From an uncultured Candidatus Saccharibacteria bacterium (GTDB lineage: Bacteria; Patescibacteriota; Minisyncoccia; Phycocordibacterales; PALSA-1337): a stretch of DNA of 53,349 nt. The DNA is taken from assembly GCA_964631035.1 (NCBI GenBank), contig CAZVVX010000001.1, forward strand, positions 1 to 53,349, written 5' to 3'. The translations under genes and the position numbers were made by a program. Within the stretch, counting starts at the first letter, position 1, and the number at the start of each line of letters is the position of its first letter. The notes beneath the pieces are model-generated. The model saw only the letters and a program-made list of their open reading frames with translations. It made no database searches and was not told where the DNA came from. This document shows positions 31,579-32,324 of this stretch, in pieces.

Positions 31579-31596
31579 AAATCTTGTTGCGGAGGT
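31579..31596. repeat. Direct repeat copy 1 (duplicated tRNA-fMet 3' end)
   Basis: AAATCTTGTTGCGGAGGT is identical to 32307..32324. Confidence 0.85.
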
Positions 31597-31711
31597 GAGA
31601 CTAAATTTGAGCCAGATTATTTTATTTATTAGAAATTTTAATTTCTACATAAAAAGTAAATCCTCTGCTTTTACAGAGGATTTCGAGATTCCTTTCCAAT
31701 CTCAAAAGTTA

Positions 31712-32203
31712 TCATCTGACAGGATCGAGAATTTCTCCGGAACTCCGGATCTCAGCTCTCTTTCCCATCAAAGTGCGGTTGGAGTAGTGGACTCTTGATC
31801 CACCAAAGATAGGAATGTCACTGAAGAACGTACGTACATCAATGTCACTATGGAACAAATCATAGACCACACGTGGTGTAGTTGAACCTGCACCCATCGC
31901 ATTCATGATGTTGCCCACCCTATCCCCATTCTTAATTGCCTGAAAATCATACCTATCTTCTAGGCAATAAATCCACTCTGTAGGAAGTGACACTAGCCGA
32001 TAAGCATATACTACCTCCCATAATTGTCCATCAACAAAAATAAAAGACCCAGGGTTAAAGCGAAGTGGGGGTGCCTTTCGCACAGTCACTGAAATGCTAC
32101 CCAAACTTTCCCTGCCAATCTGGCCACCGCGCAAAAGAACGAGTCCAGATGGTATCTGAATTTTCTTTCGAAACTTCATTTTTCCTTTAGTTGATTGTTT
32201 CAC
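31712..32203 (-). CDS. Hypothetical protein, the sole gene of the tRNA-fMet-associated insertion
   Basis: 163-aa ORF, visibly GC-richer (about 45% by eye) than neighbouring genes. No recognisable motif. Confidence 0.5.
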   Translation of the reverse strand: MKQSTKGKMKFRKKIQIPSGLVLLRGGQIGRESLGSISVTVRKAPPLRFNPGSFIFVDGQLWEVVYAYRLVSLPTEWIYCLEDRYDFQAIKNGDRVGNIMNAMGAGSTTPRVVYDLFHSDIDVRTFFSDIPIFGGSRVHYSNRTLMGKRAEIRSSGEILDPVR

Positions 32204-32306
32204 TCAATGTGCAAAATCTGATACTTTTAACATTATATCACAAACTAAATATTAGTCAATATATTAAGAGAACAACTATTTTAGTGCTCTTTTATTTAAA
32301 ATTTTA

Positions 32307-32324
32307 AAATCTTGTTGCGGAGGT
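32307..32324. repeat. Direct repeat copy 2 (last 10 nt of tRNA-fMet plus 8 nt downstream)
   Basis: AAATCTTGTTGCGGAGGT is identical to 31579..31596. Confidence 0.85.

Follow-up and report, generated by a model that had tools for sequence, protein, structure and literature searches.

A single-gene 728-bp insertion without a recombinase gene at the 3' end of a tRNA-fMet gene in a Candidatus Saccharibacteria bacterium

Genomic islands inserted in tRNA genes (Islander-type islands) are textbook elements that normally carry their own integrase and are kilobases long. Integron cassettes are another well-known system, whose features are used below as general background. Here we describe a far smaller element, an insertion of 728 bp with a single gene, at the 3' end of a tRNA-Met gene in a 53,349-nt stretch of DNA from an uncultured Candidatus Saccharibacteria bacterium (GenBank assembly GCA_964631035.1, contig CAZVVX010000001.1, positions 1 to 53,349); this whole stretch is called the window. 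We set it beside these two systems and two others, cis-mobilizable elements (CIME) and phage morons. As put in a passage of PMC4383910, the ends of an island are marked by an intact tRNA gene and by a displaced 3' fragment of it in direct orientation, and an excerpt of a preprint (bioRxiv 10.1101/2020.11.02.365908) gives the asymmetric 3' end of tRNA genes as a known integration sublocation. CIME, in the definition found in an excerpt of PMC5704250, keep their attachment (att) sites, lack integration and transfer genes, and arise by decay of integrative and conjugative elements (ICE) or integrative and mobilizable elements (IME). A phage moron, in the words of one part of PMC3594210, is a transcription unit of its own that spreads by horizontal transfer.

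The window insertion shares with tRNA-gene islands the intact tRNA gene at one end, the displaced 3' fragment at the other and the empty sites in relatives, but it differs from them in having no integrase gene and in consisting of just 710 bp and one gene. Like a CIME, it keeps attL/attR-like repeats and has no integration or transfer genes. However, a CIME moves by accretion with an incoming ICE, whereas this insert has no evident ICE or IME origin and no conjugation genes, and it sits in a host with a tiny genome. Our preferred reading, to which we give an even chance, is the site-specific insertion of a 728-bp circular cassette at the tRNA-fMet end by a recombinase encoded elsewhere.

The insert lies between two copies, in direct orientation, of the 18-mer AAATCTTGTTGCGGAGGT, placed 728 bp apart (Table 1). 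The window holds two copies of it and no third one at up to 3 mismatches (0.04 matches expected; none of 100 shuffles gave two), and no further copy was found at up to 2 mismatches in the whole assembly of the window's genome (G000; 591,257 bases in 41 contigs, 80% complete). The repeat extends imperfectly to 23 nt, with 21/23 positions identical. An earlier note on this DNA, made from the sequence alone, had read the repeat at the tRNA 3' end as an att signature; its uniqueness in the genome and the empty sites in relatives bear this out, and with two genome copies the 18-mer is no dispersed repeat. The tRNA gene was called by ARAGORN at 32314..32386, the end used in Table 1, and Rfam RF00005 places it at 32315..32386 with 63.1 bits; the proximal repeat accordingly spans 10-11 terminal nt of the tRNA and 7-8 nt of trailer, in agreement with the earlier note. 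No CCA is encoded. In the folded tRNA A1/A72 is unpaired, A11 pairs with U24 and the anticodon stem ends at its foot in two G:C pairs, features that we take to be those of an initiator-type tRNA.

The left flank of the distal repeat copy can be aligned to the empty sites of the two closest species, G010 and G033. Both (79% and 85% identical, respectively) have the same hairpin within about 25 nt of the tRNA end, and this hairpin stands at the same place directly after the tRNA in at least 9 of the 26 congeners read. The hairpin beyond the distal repeat, already suspected to be the displaced original terminator of the tRNA, fits that reading. A blastn search with 29001-34000 against the congeners left the 710 bases between the repeats without a counterpart in G033 and G010. 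Loci were read in 26 of the 32 genus genomes that match the window region; in the six others (G032, G015, G017, G018, G019 and G021) the matches are split, weak or cut by a contig end. The next tRNA-Met gene stands directly beside the first in 13 of the 26 loci: in 12 of these both tRNAs are called, 10-83 bp apart, and for the remaining one, G010, the sequence itself shows them side by side. Seven loci have 764-2,758 bp between both tRNAs, one (G022) has another ORF (open reading frame) and no second tRNA-Met, three lack the second tRNA in the stretch first fetched, and two stop at a contig end.

The insertion is recent and strain-variable. The evidence from public sequencing runs consists of contigs, and depth is no share of cells. 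An independent study, X4, has a contig of 627 letters (depth 31.1) that equals 31009..31564 without a difference and then joins 32308 through 15 letters, a net loss of 728 bp that amounts to an empty site. The bins of the insert have depths of 0-2.1 in the same study, where a 245-letter contig (depth 2.1) carries the insert without a difference. In two further studies, X3 and X8, the insert is also present and without a difference. Another run, X1, possibly represents the sample from which the window's genome came. Since contigs of three other studies carry an identical insert, it is no assembly artefact. The uninterrupted junction of tRNA and terminator that an insertion presupposes is thus found both in congeners and in a strain nearly identical to that of the window.

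Further information came from other islands at the same site. When the genus was searched with the insert at the DNA level, the matches were confined to its tRNA and terminator parts and, in addition, to 39 nt of G031 that cover the distal core and the first bases of the element; the interior of the insert has no match in the 44 other genus genomes. G031 shows the order tRNA-Asp, tRNA-Met, hairpin, CTTGTTGCGGAGGT, GAGAC, about 4.0 kb of DNA and an intact tRNA-fMet gene. This island has a 14-bp exact repeat, and its GAGAC junction is that of the window. It carries four genes, coding for a winged helix-turn-helix protein with a weak phosphoribosyltransferase (PRTase) match, an M24 peptidase, a cupin and an uncharacterised protein; none of the four ORFs has a recombinase match in Pfam. 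The first 25 element bases of the window and of G031 are identical at 18 positions, a level reached in 0 of 20,000 shuffles, at 0 of 3,998 other island positions and at 3 of 1.18 million positions in the window's genome, while the tRNA-proximal arms of the two islands are unlike each other. In G012 the tRNAs are separated by 8.2 kb with a degenerate displaced fragment, the same motif and seven ORFs of at least 110 amino acids (aa); the sole PF00589 match of that genome lies on another contig, the island ORFs themselves being unscanned. The proximal arms of G012 and G031 match at 20 of 27 positions, in a count made by eye and lacking a control. No other genome among 400 of the order has the exact junction pattern, and a one-mismatch match in G013 was discarded as chance, as it lies in coding-looking DNA with neither a tRNA nor a hairpin near. 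Three islands of 0.7, 4.0 and 8.2 kb, without a recombinase found and with unrelated cargo, thus occupy the end of this tRNA gene, which is a new finding.

We hypothesize that a foreign circle of 728 bp recombined conservatively with the 3'-terminal bases of the initiator-type tRNA-Met gene, the crossover falling inside the 18-bp stretch that circle and tRNA end would have had in common. The tRNA would remain intact in this process, and its old 3' fragment, trailer and terminator would be moved 728 bp off. As three recombinase-less islands share the element-side junction, the recombinase may come in trans, with that junction as its presumed recognition site. The repeat, the empty sites, the shared junctions and the lack of a recombinase fit site-specific insertion at the asymmetric 3'-end sublocation. 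A second species has this junction at an identical base of this tRNA gene, which speaks against an origin without site-specific recombination, whether by microhomology or illegitimate capture, by target duplication of a transposon or as an assembly chimera. We consider such an origin very improbable, even though neither a recombinase nor a circle was seen and 18 bp is short. It is also opposed by the independent assemblies that carry the insert, by a repeat that is not dispersed and by the absence of terminal inverted repeats: the insert ends share just a 9-nt AT-only inverted match, which rules against a DDE transposon or a miniature inverted-repeat transposable element. The 18-bp core also seems unlike what we take to be the dif site of an Xer/dif-type element.

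The element-side junction is not confined to this tRNA gene. The window site scores 63 bits in model R1 and 42.2 bits in model R2, and by the latter 14 of 45 genus genomes have copies (E ≤0.01), as do just 2 of 149 genomes from outside the genus (E ≤1e-4); those elsewhere in the genus are not beside tRNA-fMet. In G463 (C5:18307-24487), five or six copies of about 45 nt lie on the same strand within 6.2 kb, each just past the stop of a gene, and the genes of this array code for DUF2231, NUDIX, Fic/DOC and peptidase-like proteins and for two unnamed ones. In G001 (C28:692-3132) three copies lie on the same strand within 2.4 kb, here too each immediately after a stop codon. No tRNA is near either array. 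By eye, the motif read on the gene strand extends from GGTTCC, which resembles a T-loop, to bases that resemble an acceptor end, a layout that makes it look like an imitation of the last third of the tRNA gene.

These arrays invite comparison with integrons. Like integron cassettes, the units have a single gene and a 3' recombination-type site, form same-orientation arrays (G463, G001), carry diverse and mostly uncharacterised cargo, and have their recombinase off the cassette. They differ in that attC is folded, whereas the junction motif has no predicted hairpin: the consensus structure of 13 aligned copies contains 0 pairs (RNAalifold), and this absence of a fold rules against an integron attC. 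In addition, the boundary GTTGCGG, judged by eye, does not fit GTTRRRY, which we take to be the attC core. Moreover, the window cassette has its own promoter-like site and docks at the end of a tRNA gene. No recombinase ORF was seen inside the 6.2-kb array of G463, nor an IntI-type gene beside the arrays, the wider flanks not having been scanned with family models. The arrays open a further reading, which we consider doubtful: the genus would have an integron-like cassette system of one-to-few-gene units, each ending in a site of about 45 nt, part of which would imitate the tRNA-fMet 3' end. We would think it doubtful, too, that a recombinase encoded elsewhere docks such units at tRNA-fMet or side by side, producing same-strand arrays like that of G463. 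The window insert might then be a single, recently captured cassette with a phage-derived gene, a view we hold with equal reserve.

Recombinase genes do exist in the window's genome. PF00589 has one match there, on contig C9, to a 354-aa Xer-like gene beside an exonuclease III-like gene. PF00239 also has one, to a large serine recombinase truncated where contig C20 begins (C20:1-1453), whose gene has a GC content of 0.42-0.49 and overlaps with its 3' end the 3' end of a tRNA-Asn gene. Copies 92-93% identical to it are present in G004, G460, G030 and G013, and related serine recombinase genes in 22 of 45 genus genomes. In G004, too, the copy lies against tRNA-Asn; the DNA upstream is GC-richer over about 15 kb, and no long direct repeat was found around this element. 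The large serine recombinase is a candidate agent of the insertion, but it is near just one of the motif arrays, 3.8 kb from that of G463. Two observations concern the tRNA-Asn gene. In G030 (C5 12400-12664, minus strand) the tRNA-Asn beside the recombinase is split by a group I intron (RF00028; 54.4 bits, gathering threshold 50), and G460 has the same split layout. Separately, 27 nt of the tRNA-fMet 5' flank (window 32429-32455), AT-rich, match C20:1900-1926, about 450 bp from tRNA-Asn, at 96%.

According to pattern matches, the 710 bases would form a single complete transcription unit with a promoter-like site, a ribosome-binding site, an ORF and a terminator. On the minus strand, the tRNA is followed by the promoter-like site, AAAGGA, the ORF, the hairpin with its T-run, about 60 bases and the distal core. 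Around this unit the spare DNA amounts to about 100 bp at either end and there is no pseudogene debris. The region 31640-31715, which includes the hairpin, has a fold z-score of -4.69. An alternative GTG start at 32203 would extend the protein to 163 aa (31712..32203); the form in the protein collection is that of 155 aa. The 710 bp hold one ORF family, without a recombinase domain in a Pfam scan, and the absence of an integrase remarked on earlier thus holds. The ORF was also said to be GC-richer than its surroundings, as it proved to be: its GC content is 0.449 against 0.336 for the genome (standard deviation 0.044), a value among the highest 1.6% in a set of 5,741 windows, each of 468 bp, which also include rRNA and conserved genes. 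Windows of 600 bp with a GC content of at least 0.42 are many in this genome, and since many conserved regions are also GC-richer, composition counts as supporting evidence only for a foreign origin, to which the absence of the protein from the relatives searched and its homologues on viral contigs also point. The insert resembles phage morons in having its own promoter and terminator (by consensus scans) around one ORF, a deviating composition, and homologues on viral contigs amid unrelated neighbours. It differs from them in its place, a bacterial chromosome, between att-like repeats and flanked by host tRNA genes.

Table 1. Features of the tRNA-fMet locus and of the insert, in window coordinates
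Feature	Position	Strand	Remarks
tRNA-Met(CAT), intact	32314..32386	minus	ARAGORN; cloverleaf fold; integration target
tRNA-proximal 18-bp core copy	32307..32324		last 11 nt of the tRNA and 7 nt of trailer
Inserted DNA, 710 unique bp	31597..32306	minus	missing from empty sites (blastn against congeners; X4 contig)
Sigma-70-like promoter, TTGACT-16-TATAAT	32259..32232	minus	predicted by consensus scan; 11/12 positions; TG before the -10 hexamer
ORF, 155 aa	31712..32179	minus	ATG at 32179, AAAGGA a few bases upstream
Intrinsic-terminator-like hairpin, 11 pairs, and T-run	31648..31683 (hairpin 31683..31658)	minus	ends the cassette gene
Element-side junction site	31597..31629		homologous to the G031 and G012 island junctions and to a genus-wide motif family
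Distal 18-bp core copy	31579..31596		displaced tRNA 3' fragment, with trailer and terminator of the tRNA still attached
Original terminator of the tRNA	31535..31557	minus	hairpin 31557..31545, stem GGCGGATTTCGCC, and T-run; moved 728 bp by the insertion

The protein encoded by the insert has no Pfam, NCBIfam, PHROG or PADLOC match, and its best match by sequence in the PDB has an E-value of 0.027. A word-index search gave five relatives besides the protein itself, and a full scan gave 103 cluster representatives at E ≤0.001, of which 61 reach E ≤1e-10 and none E ≤1e-30. Three giant matches (P0064, P0079 and P0098) are cadherin or CUB/EGF repeat proteins and were dismissed as spurious. Alignment A2 comprises the 155-aa query and 67 of the 103 representatives; fragments below about 110 aa, the three giant proteins and most matches weaker than about 1e-7 were kept out. 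Pfam and PHROGs gave single weak matches only for 68 members of this cargo family, and PADLOC gave none for three members. Relatives are found on three IMG/VR contigs of uncultivated viruses (17-208 kb, 57-60% GC) and on metagenome contigs. On the viral contigs they stand amid small co-oriented genes, with phosphohydrolase, methyltransferase, nucleotidyltransferase and helicase genes nearby. No neighbour gene is conserved across the viral and metagenome loci, and thus no partner or antitoxin-like gene emerges for the family. Neither 60 relatives nor a further 400 genomes of the phylum yielded the protein, and of the 17 stretches that a back-translated pattern of it picked out in the genome contigs none is a relative. 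GenBank phages have no match to the insert (blastn) or to the protein (tblastn), and the viral contigs have none to the exact 31-base junction pattern.

The AlphaFold model of the 155-aa protein is confident, with a predicted local distance difference test (pLDDT) value of 95.2 and a predicted template modelling (pTM) score of 0.88. Foldseek found nothing at E ≤0.001 in the PDB and BFVD, and the best ESM Atlas score, 0.80, is a lead only. In a wide structural search the best match was the N-terminal domain of CarD (Z 5.3; root-mean-square deviation 2.1, 57 residues aligned), followed by ORF041 of phage 37 (Z 5.2), the C-terminal Tudor domain of UvrD (Z 5.0) and Kid (Z 4.6). On this model the core of the protein would weakly resemble a Tudor/SH3-like barrel. 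The earlier suggestion of a defence- or toxin-related cargo finds no backing: there is no PADLOC match, and Kid/MazF barrels (Z 4.0-4.6) do not rise above Tudor domains (Z 5.0-5.3), all within the range of chance. Our guess, a weakly founded one, is that the protein binds a macromolecule and serves as an accessory protein of phage type.

Several observations weigh against the insertion of a circular cassette by a recombinase encoded elsewhere. No enzyme for the insertion was identified in the 80%-complete genome, and no circular junction was seen among contigs, which drop rare forms. The promoter and terminator rest on pattern matches, the structureless junction motif could be an ordinary intergenic signal of the genus, and the best Z of the cargo, 5.3, comes from a kind of search in which values of 7-8 are common by chance per tool. 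The empty allele of X4 has three differences from the window's distal flank within 15 nt and differs in 32 of 1,150 letters on the tRNA side, and thus it is a sister-strain allele and not a fresh excision product. The identity of the junctions of window and G031 (72%) is close to that of the flanking genes (71%), which fits one old insertion, and the degenerate displaced fragment makes the G012 island an old one.

The main rival, and a strong one, is that a larger, integrase-bearing prophage or island at the tRNA end shrank through internal deletions to one gene and both att sites, the decay route to a CIME. We regard this as a real, if somewhat unlikely, possibility. Genomes this small face strong deletion pressure, and the failure to find a trans-acting recombinase, the decay of the G012 fragment and the presence of the cargo family on viral contigs are all in its favour, as is the definition of CIME excerpted from PMC5704250, in which decay is the usual fate of att-flanked elements without integration genes. 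However, all three islands at the site are without a recombinase found, and the insert is a putatively complete unit with little spare DNA at either end and none of the debris that erosion would leave. Nor was a larger parent, such as a CIME would have, found in the 44 genus genomes, among GenBank phages or, by the exact junction pattern, in viral contigs. The earlier note had proposed either an eroded remnant or a miniature element mobilised in trans. Both still lead, and because three recombinase-less islands share the site and the element-side junction the evidence leans somewhat to the second.

A weaker rival, unlikely in our view, takes up the age of the junctions. One ancestral integration would have been followed by turnover of cargo, and the empty sites would have arisen by deletion between the repeats or by import of an empty allele. 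We find it just as unlikely that such an allele, that of X4 included, was imported by homologous recombination across the conserved tRNA flanks. The divergence of the window and G031 junctions (18/25), resembling that of the flanks, the differences near the junction of the X4 allele and the unrelated genes that other congeners hold between tRNA and hairpin, with no match to the 16-mer of the tRNA end at up to 3 mismatches, would agree with this scenario. Against it, many precise independent losses would be needed, as the tRNAs are adjacent in 13 of 26 loci including those of the closest species, G033 and G010; moreover, the 18-bp repeat of the window is still perfect and the insert is identical across three independent studies. 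We therefore keep the trans-acting recombinase as our preferred reading at the strength given above.

The surroundings of the insert are variable as well, and the tRNA-fMet end is a hotspot for genes that vary. In G025, G026, G029, G035 and G020 (loci L018, L020, L025, L034 and L036) the stretch from tRNA-fMet to the hairpin, or to the HTH (helix-turn-helix) ORF, holds unrelated genes. They code for a 608-aa ABC-type protein, a 220-aa PRTase-like protein and uncharacterised proteins of 103, 168 and 216 aa. At these loci the 3'-terminal 16-mer of the tRNA has no match at up to 3 mismatches, a search that a shorter fragment would escape. The HTH ORF of the window (239 aa, 30782-31501, minus strand) occupies the interval from the elongator tRNA-Met to the hairpin. 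It has an N-terminal resolvase/Tc3-type HTH (Z 6-7; model pLDDT 76.3), is absent in G033 and is present in six congeners, always abutting the elongator tRNA-Met. The X3 contig with the insert departs from the window sequence at 31535, and X4 has the HTH ORF without the insert. Given these patterns in X3, X4 and the congeners, the ORF looks like a second, independent presence/absence polymorphism. A guess by eye that it is a LAGLIDADG endonuclease was dropped, just the N-terminal HTH being matched. Another ORF, 67% identical between G010 (L006, about 2460-3050) and G022 (L024), lies between tRNA-Met and tRNA-Asp, and its LAGLIDADG-looking motifs, seen by eye, suggest a homing-endonuclease-like gene. 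Upstream of tRNA-fMet, a 198-aa membrane-anchored protein (32439-33035, minus strand) is conserved and syntenic in most congeners; its HEPN-type Pfam matches are weak and below the cut-off (HEPN_Swt1, E 0.0071). Elsewhere in the window, tRNA-Arg(TCT) (42394-42482) is 89 nt long, unusually long for its type.

In summary, an insert of 0.7 kb with one gene and no recombinase lies at the end of a tRNA gene and is missing in a co-occurring, nearly identical strain. Small-genome, episymbiont-like bacteria are thought to exchange genes rarely. The cargo family, with 103 representatives, no name and a confident model, is a clean target for the study of a role as a phage-borne accessory protein. If a recombinase does act in trans on the junction site, the system would provide small-genome, episymbiont-like bacteria with a lightweight way of swapping single genes.

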